A stretch of 32,903 nucleotides of DNA from Bacteroidales bacterium (GTDB taxonomy: Bacteria > Bacteroidota > Bacteroidia > Bacteroidales > CAIWKO01), in contig DAOORA010000053.1 in the NCBI GenBank assembly GCA_035389045.1, positions 1 through 32,903 of the forward strand. The letters run 5' to 3'. The translations under genes were made by a program, and so were the position numbers. Of this stretch, positions 14,435 through 29,684 are shown one piece after another. Below the pieces are notes generated by a model. That model saw nothing but the letters and a program-made list of their open reading frames with translations, had not been told where the DNA came from and made no database searches. The first letter of the stretch is position 1. Each line of letters starts with the position of its first letter.

Positions 14435-14506
<72 letters not shown>

Positions 14507-14511
14507 CTTAA

Positions 14512-14553
14512 AAAGGCCTGTAAGCATTGATTTTACAGGCCTTTCATTTTTTT
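14512..14553 (+). terminator. tRNA terminator hairpin (copy carried by element 1)
   Basis: AAAGGCCTGTAA-gcattgatt-TTACAGGCCTTT plus T-run; 14515-14544 is identical to 30621-30650. Confidence 0.85.
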
Positions 14554-14572
14554 GAGTAGCAAAATAGTAGCA
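14554..14572 (+). promoter_or_regulatory. Putative integrase arm-type sites, left end
   Basis: GAGTAGCA (14554) and TAGTAGCA (14565), 11-bp period, mirrored at the right end of element 1. Confidence 0.6.
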
Positions 14573-14623
14573 CAAACTTCTAAAACAAGGTAAAAAACAT
14601 CACTTTTATAGGTTGTAAACTTA

Positions 14624-14941
14624 TTATCCTTGCTTAATTGTTTCTATAATATCCGGTGGAAATAAATCTTGCACACTCTTTTTTTTAGTTTCAAGCACCG
14701 CCTCTCTTATATCGGCCTCAATTCTGGCCTGCTTTGGCAAAATGTACTCTGATAACTCAATGATGAGTTTAAATGCTTTCTCTGGCTCTTTTTTGGCAAT
14801 ACTATCAAGCCACAAAGTAAGGTTATCAAGGTTTTTTTCAATTAACATCTGATATGCCTGCTTAATATCTTTTTTAATTTTATTCTCGGCACCCTTTGGC
14901 TTGCCTTTTGGGTTACCGCTTTGGCCTTTTTGATATTTCAT
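14624..14941 (-). CDS. DUF5681-like / small-terminase-like protein
   Basis: N-terminal KGQSGNPKGKPKGAENK motif from ATG at 14941; ends ...LSEYILPK. Confidence 0.7.
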   Translation of the reverse strand: MKYQKGQSGNPKGKPKGAENKIKKDIKQAYQMLIEKNLDNLTLWLDSIAKKEPEKAFKLIIELSEYILPKQARIEADIREAVLETKKKSVQDLFPPDIIETIKQG

Positions 14942-14981
14942 ATTTTCCTGTATTTTTTCTGTTATTTTCAGAGAAACTGTT

Positions 14982-15236
14982 TTAAAATTCATTCCATGTT
15001 GCACTTAAATCTAATGGCTCACCTTTCTCCATTATAACCGGCTCCACCTTTGGCAAAACAAAAGGCAGTAATTTTAAAACAATTTCTGTTCTTTTTTCTG
15101 GCTCTAATTTTTCAAGTGTTTCCGGTAACAATTCAAGTTCTTTTGAAATAATACTTTTTAGTATTGATCTCAATTCTTTTGTTAATAGGTTTGGAGTGCC
15201 TTGCTCTCGGCCACCTGTTTTTTTACCTTTTGCCAT
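14982..15236 (-). CDS. Small protein paralogous to the DUF5681-like neighbour (small-terminase-like)
   Basis: KGKKTGGREQGTPN..T.ELR...LEPEKR...LLPFVLPK aligns by eye with the adjacent gene. Confidence 0.65.
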   Translation of the reverse strand: MAKGKKTGGREQGTPNLLTKELRSILKSIISKELELLPETLEKLEPEKRTEIVLKLLPFVLPKVEPVIMEKGEPLDLSATWNEF

Positions 15237-15265
15237 AATCTATTTTTATCTGTTTTAGATGAGAG

Positions 15266-16201
15266 TTAAACATAGTATTTCACCGCCTCTTTAACCTTTT
15301 TATCAAGCTCAATGATAACATCACTTTCAGAGGTTTGAATTTTATTTTTACTTGCCTCTTTTATGAGGTTTCTCAAATCAAATGCCTGCTTTTTGGTTAA
15401 TTCACCTTTGGCCTGAGCCTCGGCAATTCTTTTATAAAATTCAAGTTCACCGCCTTGCTCATGGATCAGCAACAAAAGAGCCTGAGTTTTTAATTGTTCT
15501 TTGGTTTTTATCATGCTGTAATCAATTATTTTTGTTTCTCTGAGCTTGTTTATGTTCTTATACTGCTCATACCATCGGTTAATGATATTCATGTAAAATA
15601 TCTCATCATACAACATCTCAGCTCTCAATTCTGGCATATTGAATTGTGAAAGTAACCTGCCTGTAAATCTCATCTCATACCTTACTACATATCTGTTTTG
15701 ATACATCACCGGCACCGGCAAACCTTTATCAATATAATCAGCAACCTTGTTGTAAAAAACTAACTGCTTGTTATTGCCATTGTAATATAAACCTTTATCC
15801 TGTGGCAACCTTTTGAAATATTGCAGAGTGCCTAAGTGATTATAATATACATCTGGCTCAAACCTCATGATAAAATTCTGTGCTAAATCAATTCTGTTAA
15901 TACTTGCCTTGTACATCGGTAAACTCAATAAATCACTCAATTTTTCAAAGGCTCTTTTTGTATCACCTCTGGTTAATGTTTGAAAATTCTCACCAAAATA
16001 CCACTTACATAAACTACTTTCATAAACAGTAACTCTGTTTTTAGATACTTTCACTTTCAAACCATCAATGTAACCGCCTGCATATTTGTTACCATCATGA
16101 GTGCCATATTTCACATTTTGCAATTTGCATGGCACCTCAGCAAGTAAATCAATGTTACCGGCCTGATCTCTGTTTAAAACCATATCTAAATTATCATACA
16201 T
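15266..16201 (-). CDS. Phage/plasmid replication initiator (gene II/X, Rep_trans-like rolling-circle type)
   Basis: MYD start at 16201; SLCKWYFGEN, NRIDLAQN, LVFYNK (candidate catalytic Tyr) and VVRYEMRF motifs. Confidence 0.75.
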   Translation of the reverse strand: MYDNLDMVLNRDQAGNIDLLAEVPCKLQNVKYGTHDGNKYAGGYIDGLKVKVSKNRVTVYESSLCKWYFGENFQTLTRGDTKRAFEKLSDLLSLPMYKASINRIDLAQNFIMRFEPDVYYNHLGTLQYFKRLPQDKGLYYNGNNKQLVFYNKVADYIDKGLPVPVMYQNRYVVRYEMRFTGRLLSQFNMPELRAEMLYDEIFYMNIINRWYEQYKNINKLRETKIIDYSMIKTKEQLKTQALLLLIHEQGGELEFYKRIAEAQAKGELTKKQAFDLRNLIKEASKNKIQTSESDVIIELDKKVKEAVKYYV

Positions 16202-16306
16202 GGTTACTGAATTGGTAACTGAAAACAGGTTAATATAGAAAACAGGCAAAAGAGTGCCGGCACATCACCGGCACCCTGTTCATTTTGGTTACTGAATTGG
16301 TAACTG
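16201..16306. repeat. Candidate replication origin: 21-bp direct repeats flanking a GC-rich hairpin
   Basis: TGGTTACTGAATTGGTAACTG at 16201-16221 and 16286-16306; hairpin GTGCCGG-cacatca-CCGGCAC at 16254-16274. Confidence 0.6.
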
Positions 16307-16738
16307 TTTTGCATTTTTTCTCAGTGTTTCAATTTCATTTTGTAACTCACCATCACACAATAAAAAATACAGGTTTCTTTTGTTGTTTCTCTGGCCTCTG
16401 GCGACAAATATTTCAATTATGGTATAATCCTCACTAAACATCAAAATAATGCCATCAGAGGTGCCATTTACATCACCATAAGCAAAAGGCAAGGTAACAT
16501 CTGGAACAAACACAGAGCTTATATTTTTGCCCTTAGAAATACATTTCTCTGCTTGCCTCTTTACATGGCTGTTAAAGTTTGCCGGCACATCACCATAATA
16601 AAAAAACTGTTCACCTTTTTTGTTGCTCAAAATAATCTCAAAAGGCTCATATTTGCCTGTGGAGGCTGTAATATCAAACCTGTACTTACTTTTGCTCTCT
16701 GGCAAGTGTACACCCTTGTAATAATCGGTTAAAATCAC
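16289..16738 (-). CDS. Hypothetical protein, translationally coupled to xis
   Basis: 149-aa ORF; GTG start overlaps the xis TGA (GTGA at 16735-16738). Confidence 0.7.
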   Translation of the reverse strand: MILTDYYKGVHLPESKSKYRFDITASTGKYEPFEIILSNKKGEQFFYYGDVPANFNSHVKRQAEKCISKGKNISSVFVPDVTLPFAYGDVNGTSDGIILMFSEDYTIIEIFVARGQRNNKRNLYFLLCDGELQNEIETLRKNAKQLPIQ

Positions 16739-17058
16739 CTGGCACCCCCTCTCTGATTAAGTGTTACATAAGTGGAGGCCTGCTCATCAATTTCTGAGGC
16801 CGGTGTGATCCGGTTTCTTAGTAACCATTTTTCAAGCTCGGCACGATCAAAATAAATCATTTTTCCATCTGGCTTGTAATGTGGCACCTTGCCTGAGGCT
16901 GTGAGCTTGTACATGAAACTCTTTTTTTTGCCACTGTAATCACAGGCCTCATCAAAGGTTAAAACTGTTTTTGTTGCTGTGAGTAAGGCCTCAATGTTAA
17001 CGAGCTTCTGCTCAATGTTAACGAGCCTCTGCTCAATACTTATACTTTCATTTACCAT
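16735..17058 (-). CDS. Excisionase / HTH_17 DNA-binding protein
   Basis: KTVLTFDEACDYSG.KKSFMYKLTASGKVPHYKPDGKMIYFDRAELEKWLLRN. Confidence 0.9.
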   Translation of the reverse strand: MVNESISIEQRLVNIEQKLVNIEALLTATKTVLTFDEACDYSGKKKSFMYKLTASGKVPHYKPDGKMIYFDRAELEKWLLRNRITPASEIDEQASTYVTLNQRGGAR

Positions 17059-17249
17059 ATTAGTAATTTTAAAAATTAATAAATATGATTTTGCAAAATC
17101 TGTTATTGTTTAAACATTGACAAATTTCTGCAATAAAAGAAACTAAGGTAAAAAACGGTATTATTACCTATGTGTGTGTGCTTAGAAAATTAAGGCTTTT
17201 GGAGTTGCAAGCGGTATTGCAAGCGGTATTTTTTTACTCAAAAACGGTA

Positions 17250-18419
17250 TTAATCGGCTGAGGTTATAAAGTGAAAATAACCGCTGATTTTGATTTTTTT
17301 TCTATAACTCGGCTTGCTTTGCTGTGAAATATCAATTTTATAACGACTTTCAAAGAAATTGCTATAATCAGAAAAATCTAATTTTTTACCGGTGATCTTT
17401 TTTTTGAAATAACTATTATTATCTAATATCATGATAAATGCAACAAGCTCAATTTTACTTTTTAACCATGTACCCTGCTCATCAAAATACTTACCATCAA
17501 TTAATCTTTGCTCATAATCTAAAAATGTATTGATATTAGTATCTAATATTATCTTTTTTAAAGTTTCTGAAACAAAGAGAGTGCCGGTGCTTTTACTTGC
17601 TGAGGTTGTTTGTTGTTTGTGGTTAGTTAATTCTCTGGTTAATTTTTCAAGCTCAGGTTTTATGATGTTATTAAAACTCATCTCAATTTCATGATTAATT
17701 TCTGAGTGTGTTGGTTTCTTTTCAATTTCTAAAAAATTACTTTTATTTTTTCTCTGATCTAAAACATAATTTAAAATTAAAGCATCATTTTTTTCAATCA
17801 TTTTTTTTGTAACATCTGGCACACCATTAACAAGAGGCATAATACTACAATACTCTCTGATTTTAAGTATTATAAAATCACACTCTTTAATATTTTGCTC
17901 ATCTGAAATTTTATCGGCCTGAGCTATGCAACTATTAACATACAATCTTTTTTTATCATTATTATCAAGTTTCAAGTAATGAAAAATATCAAATATAAAA
18001 TTATTCCTATCACCTTTTTTAATCTCGGTTTCAATATCATGAATTACTTTAATCTGCTTATCAAAAAAACTCTTATTAATATGCCTGTTTATTTTAAAAT
18101 CTATCAATGGTATTTCTGTTTTATCTAAATCAAGCGGTATCTTATTGCCCTGCTCATCATGGCCATAAGTTTGATTTTCATAAATCACCTCACTTTTACC
18201 ATCTGGCCATGTAACATTAATCAACTTGCCATAAACAATGTTTTTATACCACTCAATATACTTGTTAATCACCGTTTCTAATTGCTCAAAAATCTCAGAA
18301 TTGAGCTTATAATGCTCAATAATTATATTCAAATAATAATTAACAAAATCACTCTCATTTAAAGAGAGTGCCTCAAATACAAACCTTTCATAATCTTTGG
18401 TTATTAGTAATTTGCTCAT
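17250..18419 (-). CDS. Hypothetical protein between int and xis
   Basis: 389-aa AT-rich ORF starting 6 nt after the int stop; no recognisable motif. Confidence 0.7.
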   Translation of the reverse strand: MSKLLITKDYERFVFEALSLNESDFVNYYLNIIIEHYKLNSEIFEQLETVINKYIEWYKNIVYGKLINVTWPDGKSEVIYENQTYGHDEQGNKIPLDLDKTEIPLIDFKINRHINKSFFDKQIKVIHDIETEIKKGDRNNFIFDIFHYLKLDNNDKKRLYVNSCIAQADKISDEQNIKECDFIILKIREYCSIMPLVNGVPDVTKKMIEKNDALILNYVLDQRKNKSNFLEIEKKPTHSEINHEIEMSFNNIIKPELEKLTRELTNHKQQTTSASKSTGTLFVSETLKKIILDTNINTFLDYEQRLIDGKYFDEQGTWLKSKIELVAFIMILDNNSYFKKKITGKKLDFSDYSNFFESRYKIDISQQSKPSYRKKIKISGYFHFITSAD

Positions 18420-18425
18420 ATCTTT

Positions 18426-19514
18426 TTATAAATTAATTTCTGGCAACTTGTTTACCGCCTCTTTGCCTCTCTTACCTATGTAATGTAAATATTTATCAGT
18501 GTGTTTAATACTTGCATGGCCTAATAACCCGGACACTGTTTTCACATCGGCACCGGCAACCTCACTATCAAGCAAATTAACCGCAAAACTGTGCCGGCCA
18601 CAATGCCATGTGATATGTTTTTCAATACCGGCATTTTTTACCCACACCCTCAAATCTTTTAAACAGGCTGTATGGCTCGGCAATTTAAAAATTAACTCAT
18701 CTGGCTTGCCTCTCTCACCTATTAGCTTAATAGCTGTATTATTCAATGGTATTGATAAACTTGCACTCTCAGAATTGTTTTTTGTTTTTCTCTGCACAAA
18801 AGAGAGCTTATTATTATGAATATTTTGCCATTTGATTAATCTCACATCACACCATCTCAGGCCAGTATGTAAACAAAATAAAAATGCACGCCTTACATCA
18901 TTATTGCCACAATGAGCCTGAGCAAGTAACTGAATTTCATCAATGGTTAAAACTTGTTTTTTTAACCCCTCATCTTTGGTGTTTATTATGCCTTTGGTAA
19001 AATCTTTTTTCAAAATATTCTCATCATGTGCCTTGCTTATTACTCTTTTGAACTTGGTGAAATAATTACAAATTGTTTCACCATTTACCGCTGTTTGCAA
19101 ATATTCTCTGTATTGCCGGCACAAATCACCATCAATAAACTTTGCATTGATACTACCATCAAAACCTTTGGTTTTTATAAACTCTTTGAAATGATGTAAT
19201 GAATATTTTACAATTCTCTTATCTCTGTGGCTGTAATCATCAGCATACTTGTTATAATATGCAATAAAATCAATGTTCTTTTTAAAGGCCGGTGTGTAAT
19301 TATACTCATCTGCACTCAGTTCAAGCTCTCTGTTTGCTCTAATAGTTTCGGCAAGTTTTAAATTTTCTTTGTTTTTTTCAGCCTCAGCCGGTGTTTTGGC
19401 TCTTACCAAATGTATATTTAAAAATTCATAGTGCCTCTCGCCATTGTGGCAAATGATTAAAAACAGGCTTTTTTTACCGCTTGCACCGTTTCTCTTTTTT
19501 AAAACTACACCCAT
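18426..19514 (-). CDS. Site-specific tyrosine integrase (arm-binding, SAM-like and catalytic domains)
   Basis: TGLRWCD (R), HCGRHSFA (HxxR), LGHASIKHTDKY (H/Y); N-terminal KKSLFL.I...GER.YEFL arm-binding domain. Confidence 0.95.
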   Translation of the reverse strand: MGVVLKKRNGASGKKSLFLIICHNGERHYEFLNIHLVRAKTPAEAEKNKENLKLAETIRANRELELSADEYNYTPAFKKNIDFIAYYNKYADDYSHRDKRIVKYSLHHFKEFIKTKGFDGSINAKFIDGDLCRQYREYLQTAVNGETICNYFTKFKRVISKAHDENILKKDFTKGIINTKDEGLKKQVLTIDEIQLLAQAHCGNNDVRRAFLFCLHTGLRWCDVRLIKWQNIHNNKLSFVQRKTKNNSESASLSIPLNNTAIKLIGERGKPDELIFKLPSHTACLKDLRVWVKNAGIEKHITWHCGRHSFAVNLLDSEVAGADVKTVSGLLGHASIKHTDKYLHYIGKRGKEAVNKLPEINL

Positions 19515-19603
19515 GCTACTAATTTTTTACTTTATTTATACCTTTGTTGCCTTTGATTAACAAAGATAAACATAGTTTTTAAATTAGTAGCATTTTAGTA
19601 GCA
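19514..19603. promoter_or_regulatory. int promoter and putative arm-type sites, right end of element 1
   Basis: Minus-strand TATCTTTG at 19561-19568; TAGTAGCA at 19585 and 19596 (11-bp period); inverted TGCTACTA at 19514-19521. Confidence 0.6.
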
Positions 19604-21355
19604 TAAATTATCATAAAAAGGTAAAATAAAGGAAAATATATTTATCTTTGTGGAGGTTAAAATACTGTTTTTATTGATTTTATAAGTATTATGTTTTACT
19701 TTATTAATAGGTTGTAATAATGTCCCCGCTACTGACACGGACTTTTCGGTTTTTTTACTGGAAAGTCCGTTTTCTTTTATCCCAAAATCATTTGAAATAC
19801 AGCGAATTAACTTAAAAAAACTGTTGTAATCCTTGGTTAGATATTTCCTTTTTTCCGTGTCCAAGACCAAACCATCAGGAAAAATCAATTTTTGCAACCG
19901 CTTTTTTGCATCGAGTGGCACGCCAACCCATATTTTACTGATGTTTTGAAATAAAGAAACGACATTTTTTATTTTATTTTTTTGGTTAGATATTTTTTTT
20001 GAGGATGTTCCAATTTTCTCCTGAGTTGCCAAAATTTCATCCGAAACCTTTTTGGAAAATTTATCATAAAGCTCTTTTGACAATTTCCCATATGCAAATC
20101 TTTCTTCCATATCTTCCTTCGTCTTGTATTGTTCATTCAGCTTTGCCTTGAGCAAAACTTCCTCTTCCCTTTTTTCATTGTATTTTGCATCAAACATCTT
20201 GTTTAGCTGATCTCTGAATAGCGGCCCATTTTTTTCAGGTATCGAAAATCCATTTAATAAATCAACAAACAGTTCGTTTGCTCCCTTCCCTTTGGCTCTT
20301 ACTGTTTGGCTTGCATTCATACAGACGCCCTTACATCTTGGGCAACAATAATAATGTACCTTTTTCTTCTTGACTTCATAGCCCGAAAGCTTTTTACCGC
20401 AATGCGGGCACAACAAAGTCCCCATCAAAGGCCTATGTTCATTCCCTTTATCAATGACGTATCCGTTGTGGTTTAAATCCAGCATTTTCTGAACTTTCAG
20501 GAATTCATCTTCTGTCACCATTTGCGCCCAATTGCCTTTTACTGGTTCCGGCAGCATCCTGTTTACACTAATTCCACAATAAAAAGGATTCCGCCACATG
20601 GCAGATAATGATTGCTTGTTTATTTTCAGCCCCCAGCAATCAAGTTTTTGCCTGATTGAAGTATCGGTATAACCTTGCAGTTTTAAATTCCAAGCTTTTT
20701 TCAGCAGCAAACCCTCCTCATTAATGATAATTTCCTGCCTGCCTTTTATCAAGTTAACATCCTTGACCCTTGTACCATAATGGCTATAACCTCTCGGTGA
20801 ATGACCAAGCCAATTGCCCTGCTTTAGAAATTCTATCATGCCCGGTTTGGTTATATCCAATCTGTCGAGGTTATCTTTACGTGCTGCCAGCAACTTATCA
20901 TAAATCTCTATCTTTCCTCTTTCGGTTTCCGTAGAGGCTCCTGTTGAAGCTTCAATCAGGTGAACCCTGTAATTATTAATCAAGGTTGTAAGCAAGGCTA
21001 TTGCATCGCCACCTGTCCGTGAGAACCTGTTTATCTTATAGACCAATATGGCAAAAGGTTTTACTTTCATGGTCTTTACCTTTTCCAACAACCGCTGAAA
21101 CTCTTTCCGCGACATATCATCAGAGGCGCTCTCATAAGTATAACCAAATTCTTCGAGAATGTTATAATTCTTTTGAGCGGAAAATCTTTTAATAGCATTC
21201 GCCTGATTTGACAGACTGAAGTTATCAAACTGGTCTTTTGAAGACACCCTTGTGTACAATAATACATAGTTATTATTGTTGAAAGCTGTCGTATCGTTTT
21301 TGGGCTTCATGAAGCCCCTGAAACGCTCAATATTACTGGTTTTCATAATATTCAA
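19595..21355 (-). CDS. Large serine recombinase (resolvase + recombinase + Zn-ribbon/coiled coil)
   Basis: YTRVSSKDQ catalytic Ser, ESAS...RKEFQ, INRFSR, GNWLGHSPRGY, NPFYCG, CPHCG...YYCCPRC; C-terminus reads across the att site. Confidence 0.93.
   Translation of the reverse strand: MNIMKTSNIERFRGFMKPKNDTTAFNNNNYVLLYTRVSSKDQFDNFSLSNQANAIKRFSAQKNYNILEEFGYTYESASDDMSRKEFQRLLEKVKTMKVKPFAILVYKINRFSRTGGDAIALLTTLINNYRVHLIEASTGASTETERGKIEIYDKLLAARKDNLDRLDITKPGMIEFLKQGNWLGHSPRGYSHYGTRVKDVNLIKGRQEIIINEEGLLLKKAWNLKLQGYTDTSIRQKLDCWGLKINKQSLSAMWRNPFYCGISVNRMLPEPVKGNWAQMVTEDEFLKVQKMLDLNHNGYVIDKGNEHRPLMGTLLCPHCGKKLSGYEVKKKKVHYYCCPRCKGVCMNASQTVRAKGKGANELFVDLLNGFSIPEKNGPLFRDQLNKMFDAKYNEKREEEVLLKAKLNEQYKTKEDMEERFAYGKLSKELYDKFSKKVSDEILATQEKIGTSSKKISNQKNKIKNVVSLFQNISKIWVGVPLDAKKRLQKLIFPDGLVLDTEKRKYLTKDYNSFFKLIRCISNDFGIKENGLSSKKTEKSVSVAGTLLQPINKVKHNTYKINKNSILTSTKINIFSFILPFYDNLCY
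19737..19778 (+). terminator. Intrinsic terminator just inside the left end of element 2
   Basis: ACGGACTTTTCGGT / ACTGGAAAGTCCGT 14-bp stem (two G-U pairs) followed by TTTCTTTT. Confidence 0.65.
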
Positions 21356-21497
21356 AAATTATGGATGAACATTGATAAATATTATCTGCAAGTATATCCA
21401 ACTCTTCGTCGGTTAAACTTTCAAATTCTTTGTATTTTCTTATTTCTTCTGGTGTAAGTTTTATTTCATTTTCGTGAACATCATTTTTGTTTGACAT
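21333..21497 (-). CDS. Small acidic protein overlapping the recombinase start (candidate directionality factor)
   Basis: MSNKND...KLTPEEIRKYKEFESLTDEELDILADNIY; 3' end overlaps the recombinase start; function inferred from position only. Confidence 0.6.
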   Translation of the reverse strand: MSNKNDVHENEIKLTPEEIRKYKEFESLTDEELDILADNIYQCSSIIFEYYENQ

Positions 21498-21575
21498 TGG
21501 TTTGGTAATGCAACATACCGCCAAATTGTTTTATGGTGGGTACGCCGTATAATATAATATATAAGTAAGAACATC

Positions 21576-22547
21576 CTACTTTTTTATTATTTCTTTTACA
21601 ACAAACTCAACTGAGGTTATTTTACCGTAATGCTGTTTTTCATTCATCTCGCAATAAGGATATTTTAGCTTTACTTTCTTTTTCCATTTGTGATATTCAT
21701 CTGGCTTATATTGCATTTTCATTTTTCCTGAAAGCATGGTCATATCCTTGTCTTTTTTGATCACTATTTCCTGAAAATCTTCTTTTTTCATAAATGCAAG
21801 CAGCTGGTTTTCTTTTTCGGTAAGATACATGCAGCTTGCGGAATACTTCTGTTTTTCTTTATCATTTAAAAACTCATAATACAACTTTGTTATTGAAAAA
21901 TAAACGTGGGTTTCATAGAAAAACATTTTTCGTTTGCTGTCAAACTCTAAAAGCTCATCTAAATAAGGTATTATCTGGTCTTTTTTTATTAGTATTCCGA
22001 ATTCTTGCTTATAGTCCATTGATGACAAAAGAAGTATTTCAAATAAATTGAATTTAATATGCTTATAAAGCTCCTCAAAAACGGTATCGGAGTTTATCAT
22101 AGATAATAATGTTTCCTTTTCTTTATCATTCAGTGTCGAGTTTTTGATCTCTAAAATTGACTTTTTGTAACGCTCGACAAGCAACCTGCTTTCAGTACCT
22201 GCTTTTGCATCATTTAATATTATTTGTAATTCATTCGGGTCAACCTCTGCAAACAATTTCTTTTTTACTGCTACAATAATTTCATAATGGATGCCGAAGT
22301 CTCGCATTTCTTCAACACATTTCAGCCATAAAAACTCTATAAATGACAAAATTTCCCATTTACGTTTTATATTTTTTGTTTCAGGACTCAAAACCAATCC
22401 ACTTGTTTTCCAATGGTTATATACTCTCGCTGAAACACCTGTTTCTTTTAACGGGATTTGTTTTGTGTTGAGGTTAAACAGAAAATCTATTTTTTCTGAG
22501 GTGAAAGGGCTATTATATGCTTTAACCAACATGTTTTCAAATTTCAT
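21576..22547 (-). CDS. MerR-like helix-turn-helix protein
   Basis: LKETGVSARVYNHWKTSGLV...RKW..LSFIEFLWLKCVEEMRDFGI; minus-strand TACATTTG box at 22592-22599. Confidence 0.7.
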   Translation of the reverse strand: MKFENMLVKAYNSPFTSEKIDFLFNLNTKQIPLKETGVSARVYNHWKTSGLVLSPETKNIKRKWEILSFIEFLWLKCVEEMRDFGIHYEIIVAVKKKLFAEVDPNELQIILNDAKAGTESRLLVERYKKSILEIKNSTLNDKEKETLLSMINSDTVFEELYKHIKFNLFEILLLSSMDYKQEFGILIKKDQIIPYLDELLEFDSKRKMFFYETHVYFSITKLYYEFLNDKEKQKYSASCMYLTEKENQLLAFMKKEDFQEIVIKKDKDMTMLSGKMKMQYKPDEYHKWKKKVKLKYPYCEMNEKQHYGKITSVEFVVKEIIKK

Positions 22548-23039
22548 TACCCGGATTTTTAAATTTTTAAGTTAAAAGCGTTTTTATCGCACAAATGTAA
22601 TATAAAATTTATATTTTACAACAAACGAACAAAAATATTTTTTTATTATTAAGAATAATCAGAACCGGAGCTAATACCAATAGCCAAAAATGAAAAATTT
22701 GAAATTTCTGGCGGCCAAAGTTATTATTACCATCAAAAAGGGGTTCATTCCAAGTTTGATCAAGGCGAAAATGGTAACTGATTATAAAAAATGTTCTTTG
22801 TACCAACCAAAATCGTTTCAGACAACCAAAATAAACCTCACATCAACATAAAATAGCTCAAAATAATGGTTCCCTCTTCAAAATCAACTCAAACATACCT
22901 GCAAATCACCTGAAATTTTCTCTGATTACCTGTAATATGGTTTTAGGAAATGAATAATGAGCATTTTTAGGTCGCAAAAGCCCTACTTTGGCCATTTACA
23001 TTTCAATTTCAGGTCTATTGAATTAATCATGAGGGCGAA

Positions 23040-23140
23040 ATGTACAAAAATGATAGGGTTTTGTATAAATATGTACAAAAATTGACAGGGTTTTGTACAA
23101 AAATGTCCATAATCGTCCAATTTTGTACATTTTCGTCCAT
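23040..23140. repeat. Helically phased TGTACA/YGTCCA array in the 0.8-kb intergenic region
   Basis: Hexamers at 23041, 23062, 23072, 23094, 23104, 23114, 23124, 23134; ~31-bp tandem duplication 23040-23102. Confidence 0.7.
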
Positions 23141-23371
23141 ATTTGATAGGTTGTTGATCGTGAGGGTTGCTCAGTTGTTGGTTTTTTGTGGGCTTGAAGC
23201 ATGAATTATGCACCTTTTCATAAAATAAAGACATTTATAAAGGTCAAAAATGGGTTTCGCGGGAAAATACATGACCAATTCAAAAAAAAATCACCAAGCA
23301 TCTTTTACTTTGTTTTTTTTACACATATTTCTTAAAAATGTATCTTTATCATTCCGAAATAAACCTAAAAA

Positions 23372-26300
23372 ATGATTAAGCCCATTATTGTCAGCCCCAG
23401 AAAATCGCTGAACAAAGCTTTCTTGAAGCTTAAACCAACCCGGACAGAGATTGAACTCTTTAAAATTAATCTTTCAACCCTGCTCGACAGAATAAATGAA
23501 AACGAATCAGAAGAATTTCATAAAAACCTTGTTGCCGATTTTCTTAAAGGCACATATTACGGTGCAGATCACTTTATCAATACGAAAGGACGCAATGATC
23601 TTGTTATACATTCTGGGAAAGATGCTAAAACAAATGTCGGTGTTATTATTGAAGCAAAAAGCCCCGCCAACAAAACGGAAATGCTTAAAAAAAACAATAT
23701 CAACCAAAAGGCATTTCACGAACTGATACTTTATTACCTCCGCGAACGGATTACTGCAAAAAACATCGAAGTAAAACATCTGGTCGCTTCCAACATCTTC
23801 GAATGGTATATTTTCGATGCGCGTGATTTTGACAAGCTTTTTGCACAAAACAAGCAACTGGTTAAACAATTTACCGATTTTGAAGAAAAACGACTTGCCA
23901 GCACCGACACTGCATTTTTCTATAAAGAGATCGCCGAAAAATTTGTTTCGTCACTTGATGCTGAAATAAGCTATACTTATTTCGACATCCGTGACTACGA
24001 AATGCCCCTGAAAAACCTTGACAAAAAAGACGACAATATTCTTATTGCGCTTTACAAACTTTTATCTCCACAGCATTTGCTGAAACAGGCATTTCTGAAC
24101 GACAGCAACAGCCTTGATAAAACATTTTACAGCGAACTTTTGCACCTTATCGGGCTGGAGGAAACCAAAGAGGGTAGTAAAAAACTAATCGGTCGCAAAG
24201 CCACCAACAAAAACAGCGGCTCTTTACTGGAAAATGCCATTATTCAACTGGATACGCTTGATAAAATATCAAGGATTTCAAATCCTTCACAATTCGGTAA
24301 TAACACCAACGAACGGCTTTATAATGTATCGCTCGAATTGGTTATTACCTGGGTTAATCGAATTTTGTTCCTGAAATTACTCGAAGCCCAATTGGTAAGC
24401 TATCATAAAGGCGACAAGAATTATGAATTTCTGAATACCGGAAAAATTAAAGACTTTGACGAGCTCAACAGTTTGTTTTTTCGTGTGCTTGCCCGAAAAC
24501 CTGATGAACGCAGCGAGGATGTGGCAAAAGCATTTTCCACGGTTCCCTATCTGAACAGTTCGTTGTTTGAACCCACAGAACTGGAGCATCAGGCCATATT
24601 CATCAGCAGTCTGCGCGACGAATCCAAAATCCCTATACTGTCAAATACTGTTTTGAAAGATGCTACAGGAAAAAAGCGAAGCGGTGAACTGAATACCATA
24701 GAATATATTTTTGAATTTCTAAATGCCTACGATTTTAGCAGCGAAGGTTCGGAAGATATACAGGAAGAAAACAAAACCCTGATAAACGCTTCTGTGTTGG
24801 GCTTGATCTTTGAAAAAATCAATGGTTATAAAGACGGTTCGTTTTTTACCCCCGGATTTATTACCATGTATATGTGCCGTGAAACTATTCGCCGGGCAGT
24901 TTTACAAAAATTCAACCACACCTTCCCCCTCCCTGGAGGGGGTCAGGGGGTGGGTTCCTCCCCCCTCCTCGGAGGGGGTCAGGGGGTGGGTTCCTCCTGG
25001 AAATCCAAAATAACACCCTACCGCTCCGACCTTCCCGAAAAGGCCCGGAAATTACGCAACAACCCAACCGTCAGCGAACAAACTCTCTGGAAAGCGCTCA
25101 AGGGTAAAAACCAATTCGGCTATGATTTTCACAGGCAAAAACCTCTTGACAGCTATATTGCCGACTTTTATTGCCGCGATCTGAAACTTGTCATTGAATT
25201 GGACGGTGCAACACATTTATCAGAAGATGTCATAAACAGAGACAAAACAAAGGAACAAAGCCTCAATGACCTTGGAATAAATGTACTTCGTTTCCCTGAC
25301 GCACTGGTGATCAACGATACATCGCAGGTTTTAAAGCAAATTGAAATTTATATTGACGCATTTCTTAAAAAAAACAGCACACTTTACAGGGATGGCTGCA
25401 CTCCGGATTTATCCTATAAAACAGCGTTGAATCCGTTATCGGGGAAGGGGTTGGTTTTTGGAAGTTTGAGCAATTTAGAAGGTTTAGAGGACACACCCCC
25501 CGACCCCCTCTCAAGAGGGGGAGACACTCCCCCCGGCCCCCTCTCAAGAGGGGGAGAGGAAGAGGGAAGGTACAAGAGCCTGGACGATGTGTATAATGCC
25601 ATTGGTAGAGATTTCACTAAAGAGGAAGCCAACAGCATTATTAACTCTTTGAAAATTTGCGATCCTGCCGTTGGTTCCGGTCATTTTTTAGTTTCAGCCC
25701 TGAATGAAATCATTGCTATAAAAAGCGAGTTAAAAATTCTATGCGACAGCAACGGTAAAACCTTGCGGGATTATTCTATTGAAGTGGTAAATGACGAACT
25801 GGCGATCACTGACGAGGATGGCAAACCCTTTGAATACAATCCGAACAATGCAGAAAGCCGCAGGGTGCAGGAAACCCTTTTCCGAGAGAAACAAACGATC
25901 ATTGAAAACTGCCTTTTCGGTGTAGATATCAATCCTAATTCTGTAAAAATTTGCCGCTTGCGCCTGTGGATCGAGCTGTTGAAAAACGCTTTCTACAAAT
26001 TTCCCCTCCTGGGAGGGGGCCAGGGGGTGGGTTCCTCCCCCCTCCCGGGAGGGGGCAAGGGGTCCTCCCCCCTCTCTGGATGGGGCCAGGGGGTGGGCTC
26101 TCCCGAACTGGAAACCCTGCCCAATATTGATATCAATATCAAATGTGGAAACTCCCTGATAAGCCGTTATGCTTTGGATTCCGACATTAAGGCTGCACTA
26201 AAAAAAAGCAAATGGACTGTGGACAGTTACCGCCTTGCTGTGATGACATACCGCAACGCACAAAGCAAAGACGAAAAGCGGGAAATGGAAAAACTGATTG

Positions 26301-27760
26301 GCCAGATAAAAAATGACTTTGAAAGCGAAGTGGCCATAAACGACAAACGGGTGATCCGACTGCGCAAGCTTAAGGCAGACCTTTTGAATCTCACTACGCA
26401 AACCAGCCTGTTTGAAAAAAGCAAAGCTGAAAAAGCAGATTGGAACAAACAGGTTAAATCACTAACTACTGATATTCAAAAACGCGAAACCGAACTTGAA
26501 GAAATTAAAAACAACAAAATTTACGAAAATGCTTTTGAATGGCGTTTTGAGTTTCCCGAAGTTTTGAATGATGATGGGGATTTTGTGGGGTTTGATGTGG
26601 TGATTGGGAATCCGCCGTATGGTGTTTCTATTAAAGGACAAGAAAGAGATTTTCTTATTAATGATATTGGGAAAGTCCCAGATTATGAAATCTATTATTG
26701 GTTCATCAATAAAGCAAATTTAATTTTAAGAAAAGCAGGACAATTCTCTTTTATAATTCCCAATACTATACTTTTCAACCTATTTGCTGAGAACTACCGG
26801 TTGGCAATGTTTGATAATTGGCATTTTGAAGATGTGTTGGATTGTACAGAAATTCCCATTTTTACTGATGCGACTGTACGGAATGTAATATTATTACTTA
26901 AAAAGGATAAGAATGGTGATAAAATATTATATCGAAACACTAAAGATATTTCAAATTTTTTTGAGATTGTTGGTAGACCTAAGTTAACTATTATGAAGGA
27001 TTTTATCGAAAATAATAATCAGAACTGGGGTTTATTATTCAAATTAGATGAAAAAGTTCTTTTAATTATTTCGAAATTGAAAGCAAATTCGGTAAGTTTA
27101 AATTCAATTTTCACAGAAACAAGCCAAGGATTAATAGCTTATGATAAATATAAAGGTCAGAGTGAAGAAATAATAAAAAATCGAGTTTATCATTCATTTG
27201 AGAAAAAGAATAATGAATATAAGCCATGGCTGTATGGTGAAGATGTTACCAGATATAATATTAGATGGAATGGGAAAGAGTATATTAATTATTGTTTAGG
27301 TATAGCGAATCCACGAGACCCAAAATATTTTGTCGGGAAGCGGATATTAATTCGGGAAATTACTAACCCTCAAATTTACGCATCCATTACAGAAGAAGAA
27401 TTATATAATGATCCTGCAATAATTATCATAAAAGAAAATCCTGCAATTTTTAATTTAGAGTTATTACTTGGGATTTTAAATTCAAAACTGGCAACATTTT
27501 ATCATTTCAATTCTTCACCAAAAGCATCAAAAGGAGCATTCCCAAAAATTCTCGTTTATGATGTTAATAATTTCCCTCTGCCAAAAAACATTGACAGAAT
27601 AATAGAAAATAAAATTACAATTTTGGCAACGGAAATTCTAACGATAAAAAAAGCCACCCCTACCGCTGACACCACCGAATTAGAATCCGAGATAGACCGG
27701 CTTGTATATGAGTTGTATGGGTTGACGGAGGAGGAGATAAAGATTGTGGAGGGAAGATAA
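23372..27760 (+). CDS. Type IIG restriction-modification enzyme (Eco57I-like, N6-adenine MTase with C-terminal TRD) with an in-frame DUF559 insertion
   Basis: N-terminal nuclease ND..IIEAK; PYLNSSLFE; LGLIFEKINGYKDGSFFTP; motif I ICDPAVGSGHFL; FGVDINP; motif IV VIGNPPY; C-terminal LLGILNSKL and EIDRLVYELYGLTEEEIKIVE. Confidence 0.93.
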   Translation: MIKPIIVSPRKSLNKAFLKLKPTRTEIELFKINLSTLLDRINENESEEFHKNLVADFLKGTYYGADHFINTKGRNDLVIHSGKDAKTNVGVIIEAKSPANKTEMLKKNNINQKAFHELILYYLRERITAKNIEVKHLVASNIFEWYIFDARDFDKLFAQNKQLVKQFTDFEEKRLASTDTAFFYKEIAEKFVSSLDAEISYTYFDIRDYEMPLKNLDKKDDNILIALYKLLSPQHLLKQAFLNDSNSLDKTFYSELLHLIGLEETKEGSKKLIGRKATNKNSGSLLENAIIQLDTLDKISRISNPSQFGNNTNERLYNVSLELVITWVNRILFLKLLEAQLVSYHKGDKNYEFLNTGKIKDFDELNSLFFRVLARKPDERSEDVAKAFSTVPYLNSSLFEPTELEHQAIFISSLRDESKIPILSNTVLKDATGKKRSGELNTIEYIFEFLNAYDFSSEGSEDIQEENKTLINASVLGLIFEKINGYKDGSFFTPGFITMYMCRETIRRAVLQKFNHTFPLPGGGQGVGSSPLLGGGQGVGSSWKSKITPYRSDLPEKARKLRNNPTVSEQTLWKALKGKNQFGYDFHRQKPLDSYIADFYCRDLKLVIELDGATHLSEDVINRDKTKEQSLNDLGINVLRFPDALVINDTSQVLKQIEIYIDAFLKKNSTLYRDGCTPDLSYKTALNPLSGKGLVFGSLSNLEGLEDTPPDPLSRGGDTPPGPLSRGGEEEGRYKSLDDVYNAIGRDFTKEEANSIINSLKICDPAVGSGHFLVSALNEIIAIKSELKILCDSNGKTLRDYSIEVVNDELAITDEDGKPFEYNPNNAESRRVQETLFREKQTIIENCLFGVDINPNSVKICRLRLWIELLKNAFYKFPLLGGGQGVGSSPLPGGGKGSSPLSGWGQGVGSPELETLPNIDINIKCGNSLISRYALDSDIKAALKKSKWTVDSYRLAVMTYRNAQSKDEKREMEKLIGQIKNDFESEVAINDKRVIRLRKLKADLLNLTTQTSLFEKSKAEKADWNKQVKSLTTDIQKRETELEEIKNNKIYENAFEWRFEFPEVLNDDGDFVGFDVVIGNPPYGVSIKGQERDFLINDIGKVPDYEIYYWFINKANLILRKAGQFSFIIPNTILFNLFAENYRLAMFDNWHFEDVLDCTEIPIFTDATVRNVILLLKKDKNGDKILYRNTKDISNFFEIVGRPKLTIMKDFIENNNQNWGLLFKLDEKVLLIISKLKANSVSLNSIFTETSQGLIAYDKYKGQSEEIIKNRVYHSFEKKNNEYKPWLYGEDVTRYNIRWNGKEYINYCLGIANPRDPKYFVGKRILIREITNPQIYASITEEELYNDPAIIIIKENPAIFNLELLLGILNSKLATFYHFNSSPKASKGAFPKILVYDVNNFPLPKNIDRIIENKITILATEILTIKKATPTADTTELESEIDRLVYELYGLTEEEIKIVEGR
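24925..24996 (+). repeat. Two 36-bp GC-rich palindromic units, in frame (PLxGGGQGVGSS)
   Basis: CCCCCTCC-NN-GGAGGGGG-TCAGGGGGTGGGTTCCTC x2. Confidence 0.9.
25010..25372 (+). other. DUF559 / Vsr-like endonuclease domain embedded in the RM gene
   Basis: KARKLRNNPTVSEQTLWKALK..QFGYDFHRQKPLDSYIADFYCRDLKLVIELDGATH...RDKTKEQSLNDLGINVLRF; boundaries approximate. Confidence 0.88.
25490..25555 (-). repeat. Two 33-bp palindromic units, inverted relative to 24925-24996 (DTPPxPLSRGG)
   Basis: GACACNCCCCCCG-NCCCCCTCT-CA-AGAGGGGGA x2; reverse complement CCCCCTCTTGAGAGGGGGTCGGGGGGTG matches the left units. Confidence 0.88.
26002..26100 (+). repeat. Three further palindromic units, in frame, with no nuclease
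   Basis: Encodes FPLLGGGQGVGSSPLPGGGKGSSPLSGWGQGVGS between KNAFYK and ELETLPNIDINIKCGNSL. Confidence 0.88.
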
Positions 27761-27776
27761 AATTATATATAATACT

Positions 27777-28751
27777 ATGGGAACATTAAAAACAGATAAA
27801 TGCTTTATTACAGACCTACCCGCATTCAATTTTGATCAAGGGATTTCAGTCTATGAATACACAATTGATATAAATGGAAAAAAGGTGGCTTTATACTTTA
27901 ATCAAGATGCTGAGAATTGGAATAAACACGATGTTTTTTTATCCAAAAAACACATTTTTGCAGGAGCTTTAATTAATGGGAAATTACTCGATGAATCTAA
28001 GGTTTTCCCTGTTATTACGGCAGACTTTTTATTTAATAGAATTAAAGAAATGGTTTATCCTTCTTCTCCAAAAGAAAAGTTAGATAACCTATTTAAAACG
28101 TTAATTTCATTTCAAAATAGTGAGGGTGATAGTATCTTCCTCCAAAGACTTGTACCTGATCCAATATTTTATTTTGGGCATTATTTTAGATCACGAGAAG
28201 AATGTATGTTTTATTTTAAAACTCTAATTGAACAGAAATTAATAAATGCAAAATTAAATATTGATCCTCAACATGGCCATAATAATATTCTTTATGCTAA
28301 TATTACATTTAAAGGGCTCAATTACTATCTGGATTTGATTGACAATGGGAAACTTTCTAACAAATGTTTTGTGGCCATGTCATTCACTCCTGAAAATCAA
28401 TTGCTAGTCAATATTCGCAATTCAATCAAAGAAGCTATTGAAATCACTGGATTTAAACCAATTCTAATAGATGAGGTTCACTACGATTGCGAAAAAACAA
28501 TTAATGATGCTATAATTGCGAACCTAAAAGAATGCAAATTCTGTATAGCTGATTTTACGGAACAAAAAGATGGGGTATATTTTGAAAGTGGGTTCGCATT
28601 AGGTCAGGGGAAATCGGTGATTTACACTTGCAGGCAAGAAGATTTTGAAAAATCACATTTTGACACGAACCATTTTCCGCATATCATTTACAATAACCCA
28701 GATGAATTAAAACAAAAGCTTATTGATAAAATTAACGCATGGATAAAATAA
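27777..28751 (+). CDS. Protein with C-terminal nucleoside 2-deoxyribosyltransferase/TIR-like domain (defence-associated type)
   Basis: KCFVAMSF...GFKPILID...INDAIIANLKECKFCIADFT.QKDGVYFESGFALGQGKSVIYTC...HFDTNHF; preceded by a wHTH-like segment ending ITFKGL; ATG at 27777. Confidence 0.75.
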   Translation: MGTLKTDKCFITDLPAFNFDQGISVYEYTIDINGKKVALYFNQDAENWNKHDVFLSKKHIFAGALINGKLLDESKVFPVITADFLFNRIKEMVYPSSPKEKLDNLFKTLISFQNSEGDSIFLQRLVPDPIFYFGHYFRSREECMFYFKTLIEQKLINAKLNIDPQHGHNNILYANITFKGLNYYLDLIDNGKLSNKCFVAMSFTPENQLLVNIRNSIKEAIEITGFKPILIDEVHYDCEKTINDAIIANLKECKFCIADFTEQKDGVYFESGFALGQGKSVIYTCRQEDFEKSHFDTNHFPHIIYNNPDELKQKLIDKINAWIK

Positions 28752-28772
28752 AGGATTAAATAGCTTAAAATT

Positions 28773-29684
28773 ATGTCCAAAGACAACGCAAAAACTATTT
28801 TCGTTATAGATTTCGACAAGATTAATGATCATATTGCATGGTTAAATAGCAACAGGTGCAAACATCATGATTATAAATCTTACCCTGCCAAGCTCCTAAA
28901 AGTTGATTTCCATGCTTGTAATTTTCTTAAACCTTATCATATTGCTCCACTGGCGTGCCTGATTTATGAATACCAGCAGAAAGGGTTTGTTATAAAACTT
29001 ATCAATATTCCTGCGGCTATTAAGGACTATTTTGATGCCTTTAATTTTCAGCAATTTTGCAAGCAAGAACCCTATAACCACTTTCCCACACCCTTAGATT
29101 CCAAAATACTTCCATTATGGCGAATTGAACAAACCGCCATAAGTGTTTACCCCGCAGAAGCCCAACGGTATTTTGAAAATCTGCATTTCGACAGCAAAAG
29201 TTTATTTTCATTGAGCAGCTCATTGGCGGAACTGATGAATAATGTTTTTGACCATTCAGAATCAAAAATCCCGGGTTATACCTTTACACAATATAACACA
29301 CGAAATAATGAAATCACATCTTGTGTCTGTGATTTCGGAATTGGAATACCACGAAAGGTCAATAAATATCTTTCGGAAAATAAACTTGAAACTATTGATA
29401 ACGTTTCAGCCCTGAAAAAAGCCCTTGAATATAAATTTTCCACATTATCAAAACCGCACAACAGGGGTTATGGGTGGGATAATGTTTTTTCCATAGTTAA
29501 AGGTCTCAAAAGTAAAATTCTTATCATCAGCAATAACGTACTATATAAAAACGATTTTAATAAAGCGCCTATAACTTCTTTACTTAACAATAATTTCCCG
29601 GGAACAATTATCGTTATTTACCTAAATACACTTAATCTGCCACAAAAAGAAGAAGAAATTACAGACGAATTAATCATTTTATGA
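28773..29684 (+). CDS. STAS-like + GHKL/HATPase (anti-sigma-kinase-like) protein
   Basis: N box LAELMNNVFDHS, G1 VCDFGIGIP, G2 NRGYGW, G3 FPGT; no transmembrane or His-phosphotransfer domain. Confidence 0.78.
   Translation: MSKDNAKTIFVIDFDKINDHIAWLNSNRCKHHDYKSYPAKLLKVDFHACNFLKPYHIAPLACLIYEYQQKGFVIKLINIPAAIKDYFDAFNFQQFCKQEPYNHFPTPLDSKILPLWRIEQTAISVYPAEAQRYFENLHFDSKSLFSLSSSLAELMNNVFDHSESKIPGYTFTQYNTRNNEITSCVCDFGIGIPRKVNKYLSENKLETIDNVSALKKALEYKFSTLSKPHNRGYGWDNVFSIVKGLKSKILIISNNVLYKNDFNKAPITSLLNNNFPGTIIVIYLNTLNLPQKEEEITDELIIL

Follow-up and report, generated by a model that had tools for sequence, protein, structure and literature searches.

Near-total loss of short DNA words from a small integrative element of Bacteroidales: a likely variant of restriction-target avoidance

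How can a small mobile element come to lack a three-letter DNA word almost completely, over more than 5 kb, when the DNA on either side of it uses that word freely? The question is raised by a stretch of 32,903 nucleotides (the window; contig DAOORA010000053.1 of assembly GCA_035389045.1) from a wastewater Bacteroidales bacterium, in which an integrated element, here called element 1 (14510..19720, 5211 bp, GC content 32%), is inserted at a tRNA gene next to a second one, element 2 (19734-23300, GC 0.34). The original prediction, made from the sequence alone, was that GTC is missing and GAC occurs only about four times on the plus strand of 14509-19720, and it attributed this to purging of restriction sites or to evasion of a short-motif nuclease. 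Counting over that interval (5212 bp, GC 32.4%) gave exactly 0 GTC and 4 GAC, three of them where they had been placed (16403, 17119, and 17345) and the fourth at 18532 instead of 18522. The short-word depletion is real and stronger than first described, since the whole zone 14510..19720 is purged of GAC/GTC (together GWC, where W is A or T), GGA/TCC, GAAG/CTTC, and ACG/CGT, as well as of ACGT, TCGA, and CTAG.

Expectations for the words counted in this interval and in its control regions were taken from first-order Markov simulation (300 runs) except where base composition is named. Under this model the element holds 4 GAC|GTC where 60.0 +/- 6.9 are expected (simulation minimum 41), 22 GGA|TCC where 85.3 are expected, 2 GAAG|CTTC (GAAG 0, CTTC 2) against 33.7, and 9 ACG|CGT (ACG 7, CGT 2) against 34.6, which bears out both the predicted rarity of the last two pairs and the statement that AT-richness would still leave dozens of GAC/GTC. 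CGA|TCG, at 21 observed and 30.5 expected, is not significantly low when the low CG content is allowed for, and 52 of the 59 CG dinucleotides lie within CCG or CGG, as had also been noticed. Relative to base composition, by which 92 occurrences of each are expected, GAC stands at 4, ACG at 9, CGA at 21, and GGA at 22; CCC is found 16 times (44 expected), CTTC twice (31 expected), and ACGT, TCGA, and CTAG, which we take to be known Type II sites, not once (about 16 expected for each). Enriched words, among them GCC/GGC (3.2-fold), CCGG and GGCC (5.6-fold each), and CTC/GAG (1.7-fold), are probably the residue left by avoidance. The strongly purged 3-mers all contain A or T and all are asymmetric except GWC, and GAC is depleted in all 16 of its flank contexts, so what behaves as the target is the three-letter word as such.

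The depletion ends at the borders of the element. GAC|GTC is close to expectation in element 2 (50 observed, 49.8 expected), in the left flank (102 and 104), and in the right flank (74 and 86), in agreement with the normal usage originally proposed for these regions, and the shift does coincide with the attachment (att) repeats. These are two copies of a 13-bp direct repeat, tgtccccgctact, read from the sequence: attL (14497..14509) contains the last GTC before the purged zone, at 14497, and attR (19721..19733), the displaced tRNA 3′ end, contains the first one beyond it, at 19722. Nothing comparable is present elsewhere in the 4.46-Mb assembly, where the seven poorest of 8460 2-kb windows all lie within element 1 with 1-3 GAC|GTC each, as against 9 in the poorest window outside it and a genome median of 34. 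A 5-kb composite score over GAC, GGA, ACG, CGA, and GAAG is −13.4 for element 1 and −4.0 for the next non-overlapping window. With a purged 4-mer defined as one that is expected at least 8 times and has an observed-to-expected ratio (o/e) below 0.15, 18 of the 126 testable 4-mers are purged from the core of element 1, while the maximum among 963 equal-sized segments of the same genome is 6.

It is the DNA word that is avoided and not a set of codons. All seven open reading frames (ORFs) of element 1 are on the minus strand and their codon usage is extreme, with Asp encoded by GAC 0 times and by GAT 85 times, Gly by GGA in 3 of 74 cases, Pro by CCC and Ser by TCG never, and Val by GTC once. Two controls were applied, a shuffle of codon order and a synonymous shuffle that keeps the proteins and the element's own codon usage, and the depletion outlasts both of them and is therefore not a matter of codon usage. 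Off-frame GAC is found 0 times where 20 are expected, with 0 of 1000 shuffles of either type as low, and off-frame GTC is found twice (14-16 expected), GGA 10 times (27-50), ACG once (16-21), and GAAG once (8-12); TCC and CGT are likewise depleted beyond the shuffles, and only off-frame CTTC (0 observed, 2.2-2.7 expected) is not significant. On the coding strand of the coding sequence the counts are GAC 0, GTC 3, GGA 13, TCC 7, GAAG 1, and CTTC 0. Each word is thus depleted together with its reverse complement and in all reading frames, and this symmetry points to a reader of double-stranded DNA, not of mRNA. The 585 bp of intergenic DNA contain 1 GAC and 0 GTC, the sole intergenic survivor (17119..17121, plus strand) lying within ttgacaa between the genes for an HTH_17 protein and a 389-aa protein (p389). 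The other three GAC survivors sit in synonymously changeable codons, and nearly all surviving sites inside genes could be removed synonymously. Markov and codon-shuffled controls had been proposed as the check on the original prediction; the depletion persists under both and element 2 is normal.

Elements related to element 1 were found at 62 loci in Bacteroidia genomes by alignment of the replication initiator Rep (alignment A1), mostly in metagenome-assembled genomes (MAGs) and in some isolates (Mediterranea, Segatella copri, and Bacteroides sp.), and they keep the gene order integrase, p389-like gene, HTH_17, p149, and Rep. Core analyses covered the element in the window and the 40 loci in which an integrase is encoded upstream on the same strand, and the remaining 22 loci were scored for word o/e only, on Rep plus 1.5 kb upstream. 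Where a usable flank of equal length was available (25 loci), the median number of purged 4-mers is 8 in the cores and 1 in the flanks (Wilcoxon p 3e-5, which overstates the case because the 25 loci are related), and, CTAG aside, one or more palindromic 4-mers are absent from 35 of 41 cores as against 10 of 26 flanks. The palindromes concerned are TCGA (purged from 25 cores), GATC (20), CATG (14), ACGT (9), and AGCT (7), all of them presumably classic Type II sites, and the non-palindromic words purged in the family are CGAA, CGCA, CGTA, CGGA, CAGC, CTGA, and AGTC. In elements hosted by Prevotella, Segatella, and Saprospiraceae it is CpG that has nearly gone, the CG o/e being 0.07, 0.12, and 0.16 in three Prevotella/Segatella loci (L050, L047, and L059) and 0.00 in a Saprospiraceae locus (L067), with 0.6-1.0 in the flanks (0.80 for L050 and 0.61 for L067).

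A GAC o/e below 0.25 is shared by the element in the window and 6 of the 62 loci, namely L018 (5 observed/67 expected), L019 (14/64), L020 (10/43), L032 (2/92), L035 (1/36), and L053 (3/15). The first three are in genomes of the window's own genus, while L032 and L035 are in Rikenellaceae MAGs whose Rep is just 47-49% identical to that of the window. On a FastTree phylogeny of 44 Rep rows, computed with 19 loci set aside for short or interrupted matches (L032 included), the GAC-low label needs at least three changes. L021, a close sister of L018 and L019, has kept GAC (50/77, o/e 0.65) and yet is purged of GGA (16/77, o/e 0.21) and ACG (14/77, o/e 0.18), from which it follows that the loss of GAC is a separate event and changes faster than the proteins. 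GAC/GTC has been lost in at least two lineages, and word purging is a trait of the family, with lineage-specific sets of 2- to 4-letter words.

What could remove such words from so small a piece of DNA? We consider it moderately probable that selection on a tiny mobile replicon has shed the target words of sequence-specific host nucleases, and we infer nucleases to be the selective agent. Element 1 would then pass between Bacteroidales hosts as a tiny integrative replicon of the rolling-circle type, recoded by selection until its DNA lacks the short words read by the sequence-specific DNA-cutting defences of those hosts. The defences would be restriction-modification (R-M) systems in the broad sense, represented by 4-bp Type II sites and by half-sites or sub-motifs belonging to the asymmetric enzymes of Types I, IIG, and III that methylate adenine, and each site lost would improve the chance of survival on entering a cell with a methylation pattern foreign to the element. 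At a size of 5 kb, full loss of a three-letter word would need only some 60-90 substitutions, most of them synonymous.

Such selection is supported first by the proteins. GGA-forcing dipeptides, in which Met or Trp stands before Asp or Glu, number 1 where 19.6 are expected in nine GGA-poor elements, which represent about three lineages, as against 105 where 141 are expected in the other 54 elements. For GAC the corresponding dipeptides, Met or Trp before Thr (0 observed, 5.9 expected), give no significant result because this pair is rare everywhere (26 observed, 69 expected in the other elements). The depletion is also stronger in element 1 than in the host chromosome, which shows no depletion of GGA, GAAG, or CGAA and a mildly low GAC (0.70 relative to base composition). 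The methylase repertoire of the host fits asymmetric, A-containing words: there are 10 N6_Mtase matches, some of them Type I methylases and three to four of them ORFs of the length usual for Type IIG enzymes, among the latter the 1462-aa enzyme encoded at 23372-27760 in the window, together with two hsdS loci and one N4/N6 methylase. Enzymes of these N6_Mtase, Type I, and IIG types read asymmetric, adenine-containing sites, although their individual specificities could not be read from the host methylase genes. Finally, the host itself avoids a site with a GWC core, GGACC/GGTCC, a palindrome that we take to be an AvaII-type site and that is its most under-represented 5-mer; by maximal-order Markov estimates, the most under-represented words of the host are CTAG (0.19), GGACC/GGTCC (0.64), CTCGAG (0.42), and CGATCG (0.47), and CCGG is about 3-fold over-represented relative to base composition. 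Thus, of the original proposal of restriction-site purging, the part that stands is a DNA-word purge confined to the element, for which nuclease evasion is the best-fitting cause in that the loss is symmetric, in all frames, and visible at the protein level. The attribution to Type II/IIS sites that contain GAC is not supported, as all 16 contexts of the word have gone.

Several points weigh against selection by nucleases. No restriction enzyme is known to us whose recognition sequence is just the 3 bp of GWC, or just CpG as in the Prevotella-hosted relatives, and with all 16 GAC contexts depleted only a very large union of longer sites could account for the loss. A full-text literature search combining GWC, methyltransferase, and restriction returned, in the text available to it, only a GWCCT Type III methylase. 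Part of the pattern is shared background, since the 4-mer biases of element 1 and host are correlated (r 0.47), CTAG being rare and CCGG abundant in both. The host DNA is not depleted in GAC, which has an o/e of 0.91 in the remainder of the window with dinucleotides allowed for, and no other mobile DNA in the host genome is even partly purged of the same words. The contig depth of element 1 equals that of its flanks in the probable source run (30.7, compared with 31-37), and neither a circular junction nor an empty site was found in the contigs of four public runs, which cannot exclude a circle. The loss of GWC might be accounted for in three ways, by a large union of sites or half-sites, by a protospacer-adjacent motif (PAM), or by an undescribed 3-bp reader; in the literature searched, neither this element family nor avoidance of GWC or of half-sites was reported.

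PAM avoidance, which we regard as improbable, would mean that the purged non-palindromic words (GAC, GGA, GAAG, ACG, and CpG in relatives) are the PAMs of clustered regularly interspaced short palindromic repeat (CRISPR) systems in the hosts, such that an element without them would be neither sampled for spacers nor targeted. The words are indeed the size of PAMs and not of restriction sites, they are lost from both strands as PAMs predict, and the sets vary with host lineage. The host has a cas1-cas2 locus (C9:93555-94951) that closes its contig with a single 47-nt repeat, presumably of a Type II-C kind to judge from its likeness, and a genome of the same genus has an array of 24 repeats and 23 spacers of 29-31 nt (G010:C31:4299-6100). 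However, these 23 spacers match neither the window nor the host genome nor any of the loci retrieved (longest chance matches 14-19 nt), and hence no PAM could be derived from them; in the host itself the repeat scan gave tandem or dispersed repeats only, leaving no assembled array and no derivable PAM for its Cas9. PAMs also leave the purge of palindromic 4-mers unexplained, and the PAM depletion published for phages is weak. Short BLAST matches of element 1 in other genomes were considered as spacers and rejected, as no repeats surround them at the four loci checked.

The words might instead have been eroded with no selection for evasion, by a context-specific mutational process acting on an episomal or single-stranded form, such as a cytosine deaminase or the decay of methylated cytosine at GWC and WCG. 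GWC is palindromic, and deamination on either strand would turn it into GAT or AAC, often synonymously; element 1 is AT-richer than the host (GC 32% and 41%), TG/CA is slightly elevated in the CpG-purged relatives (1.21 compared with about 1.10), and a rolling-circle Rep implies single-stranded intermediates. Against this, the scarcity of Gly GGA (3/74) and the recoding of Ser TCN have come about by routes other than C-to-T or G-to-A, with GGT, GGC, and AGT increased; GTT is not in excess among the remaining Val codons (0.44, host 0.40); GGA-forcing dipeptides are missing; and relatives are purged of GATC, CATG, and TCGA, which we take to be adenine-methylated sites and which deamination cannot explain. 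No cytosine-5 (C5) methylase match (PF00145) was found in the 96.3%-complete host genome, and the hallmarks of motif decay, a C5 methylase or deaminase accompanied by an excess of transition products, were not seen. This explanation keeps a low probability because a palindrome-directed deaminase could purge GWC largely synonymously.

Equally doubtful is the proposal that a nuclease with frequent sites, encoded either by a helper phage for the degradation of host DNA or by the element, cuts the chromosome and competitors and spares an element that has no sites. It would explain a three-letter target and why this element alone is purged in its genome, and an element with neither capsid nor transfer genes must depend on a helper of some kind. 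No nuclease domain, however, was found in any protein of the element (Pfam, PHROGs, and PADLOC), and no helper was identified. The protein p389 was considered as lineage-specific cargo or as the nuclease and was rejected, being encoded by a fast-evolving core gene found throughout the family and not confined to GAC-poor lineages. A search of 50,697 phage records with Rep gave no match, the plasmid collection gave a single weak one, and only two relatives are present among IMG/VR contigs. As for translational codon preference or plain AT-richness, to which the extreme codon usage and low GC of element 1 might point, it is given a negligible probability, refuted by the codon shuffles, by off-frame and antisense occurrences that are equally absent, by intergenic DNA nearly free of GAC and GTC, and by the Markov comparison with element 2, which is normal at the same GC.

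The element itself has the parts of a tRNA-integrating tyrosine-recombinase element, that is, an integrase, a repeat duplicating the tRNA 3′ end, and an excisionase-like gene. The integration site is the 3′ end of a tRNA-Met (CAT) gene (14435..14507, plus strand; ARAGORN), and the tyrosine integrase with its Arm-DNA-bind_5, SAM_5, and catalytic domains is encoded at the opposite end (18426..19514, minus strand, like all the following genes; Pfam and PHROG 1). Rep, a rolling-circle replication initiator of the Phage_CRI/G2P N-terminal family (15266..16249), matches PF05144 with an E value of 6.3e-16 and 59.2 bits (gathering cut-off 21.7), and its conservation begins at Met17 in alignment A1, so that the true start may be near 16201. 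A motif, TGCCGGCACA(T/A)(A/C)TCACC, occurs three times in the element (16255-16275, 16580-16600, and 19114-19130), and the copy between the Rep and p149 genes belongs to a palindrome, GTGCCGGCAC followed by ATCACCGGCAC; as a repeated motif it could be a binding site for Rep or a regulator, or a replication origin.

Among the other genes, p149 (16289..16738) encodes a 149-aa core protein conserved in 54 loci, for which the AlphaFold2 model has a pLDDT (predicted local distance difference test score) of 91 and no clear match was found to its fold (best Foldseek E 0.046; best VIA Z 5.6, to profilin/GAF-like folds). The HTH_17 protein (16735..17058; Pfam E 7.7e-12; PHROG 66, excisionase and transcriptional regulator, E 4.5e-08) is probably an excisionase or regulator, to judge from these family matches. 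The 5′ part of its gene contains a 21-bp tandem duplication, caatgttaacgagc[t/c]tctgct, at 16990-17035 that encodes IEQ(K/R)LVN twice. p389 (17250..18419) lies between the integrase and HTH_17 genes and belongs to a family of 36 ORFs by single-linkage clustering (mean identity 14% in alignment A2); it has no Pfam match, its model has a pLDDT of 54, and in Atlas it points only to uncharacterised Bacteroidota DUF clusters. Two genes lie toward the tRNA. p84 (14982..15236) encodes an 84-aa protein that has homologues in many relatives and no family match in Pfam or PHROGs. The accessory 126-aa protein encoded at 14624..15004 matches DUF5681 (Pfam E 4.4e-08), is missing from some relatives, and has PHROGs matches of unknown function; the DUF5681 family turned up in one phage paper only within the text covered by the literature search. 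The proteins of element 1 include no capsid, terminase, packaging, or relaxase family (Pfam and PHROGs), no MOB match (Pfam), and no defence-family match (PADLOC).

Element 1 also occurs outside the window, with an identical copy in public contigs of a second study, of an anaerobic digester. A contig of run X3, from another digester study, leads straight from the tRNA end to a Rep gene (14507 to 15272 in the window) with no DUF5681 and p84 genes between them, and this Rep gene, part of a related element, has 15 differences from that of the window over 412 aligned bases. In an RNA run the contigs cover the integrase gene alone and are no demonstration of transcription.

The neighbourhood of the tRNA hotspot includes a defence island (23372-29684) with a Type IIG enzyme, a TIR-effector match, and a weak DrmA-like match; the Type IIG restriction-methylase (23372-27760) has 1462 aa and the domains DUF7149, DUF7814, DUF559, Eco57I, and TaqI_C. 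In element 2, the ORF of a serine recombinase (19595-21355, minus strand; Resolvase, Recombinase, and zinc-ribbon domains) runs through attR, and its last ~40 codons lie inside element 1. Because the 3′ end of this ORF is in element 1, the latter seems to have entered a site that was already occupied, separating the tRNA from the older tenant and replacing the original 3′ end of the recombinase gene. Elsewhere in the host genome, at or near contig ends, there are two long arrays of 7-bp tandem repeats of the GGGAGTT and AGGAGTC types (C45:9924-10363 and C59:35-233), one of which contains a stretch of N.

Should nucleases indeed be the selective agent, this is among the most extreme cases of target avoidance known to us, with a three-letter word reduced by about 95%, a dinucleotide reduced by more than 90% in relatives, and proteins adjusted. 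As the word sets are lineage-specific and bounded by att sites, the family could reveal motifs relevant to the defences of uncultured Bacteroidales, and the purged words could guide the design of DNA for gut and wastewater Bacteroidales that are hard to transform. It is possible, though we think it unlikely, that Bacteroidales or their phages possess undescribed DNA-targeting systems, or helper nucleases, that read only 2-3 bp. Their targets would be GWC in Rikenellaceae and in the genus of the window, CpG in Prevotella and Segatella, and, over a wider range, GGA/TCC and GAAG/CTTC. In that case this family of ~5-kb integrative rolling-circle elements would be a negative imprint of their specificities, and the words missing from each lineage would spell the recognition sequences of undescribed defences or of helper-phage nucleases that degrade host DNA.

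How does element 1 compare with known systems? In its organization it resembles NBU1 and NBU2, integrative mobilizable elements of Bacteroides, which, in the passages of PMC5704250 drawn on here, are likewise small, lack transfer machinery of their own, and are inserted by a tyrosine integrase at a tRNA 3′ end with a short direct repeat. The same passages describe MobP relaxases in NBU1 and NBU2, unlike the family of element 1, in which no relaxase or oriT is recognised and the initiator is a rolling-circle protein of the Phage_CRI type. That initiator resembles the gene II proteins of filamentous phages, matching the N-terminal domain of the family (Phage_CRI, PF05144) above the curated cut-off, but no other inovirus gene (coat, assembly, or Zot-like) is found in element 1. 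A three-letter word linked to a nuclease has a parallel in the avoidance of the MazF target ACA by RNA phages, as portions of PMC12151602 describe it; there a single RNA strand is concerned, whereas the loss of both word and complement here indicates double-stranded DNA.

The closest likeness is to restriction-target avoidance in small plasmids and phages (the Arber-Linn hypothesis), as set out in sections of Shaw, Rocha and MacLean (2023; PMC10359461), according to which small plasmids adapt to R-M by sequence change, large plasmids instead carry restriction-protecting genes such as methyltransferases, avoidance is stronger in smaller and broader-host-range plasmids, and avoidance of 4-bp palindromes does not differ between plasmid and core genes. 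Element 1 agrees with this picture in being a small mobile replicon from which short words have gone together with their complements, in avoiding words more strongly than the chromosome does, and in a word set that depends on lineage and includes 4-bp palindromes. It differs from the avoidance described in those sections in that the words are as short as three letters (GWC and GGA/TCC), or two in relatives (CpG), that they are mostly non-palindromic, that depletion is near total (4 of some 60-90), and that protein sequences are affected in the present family. We regard the purge of element 1 as a variant of restriction-target avoidance, one that is most likely selective and related to defence.

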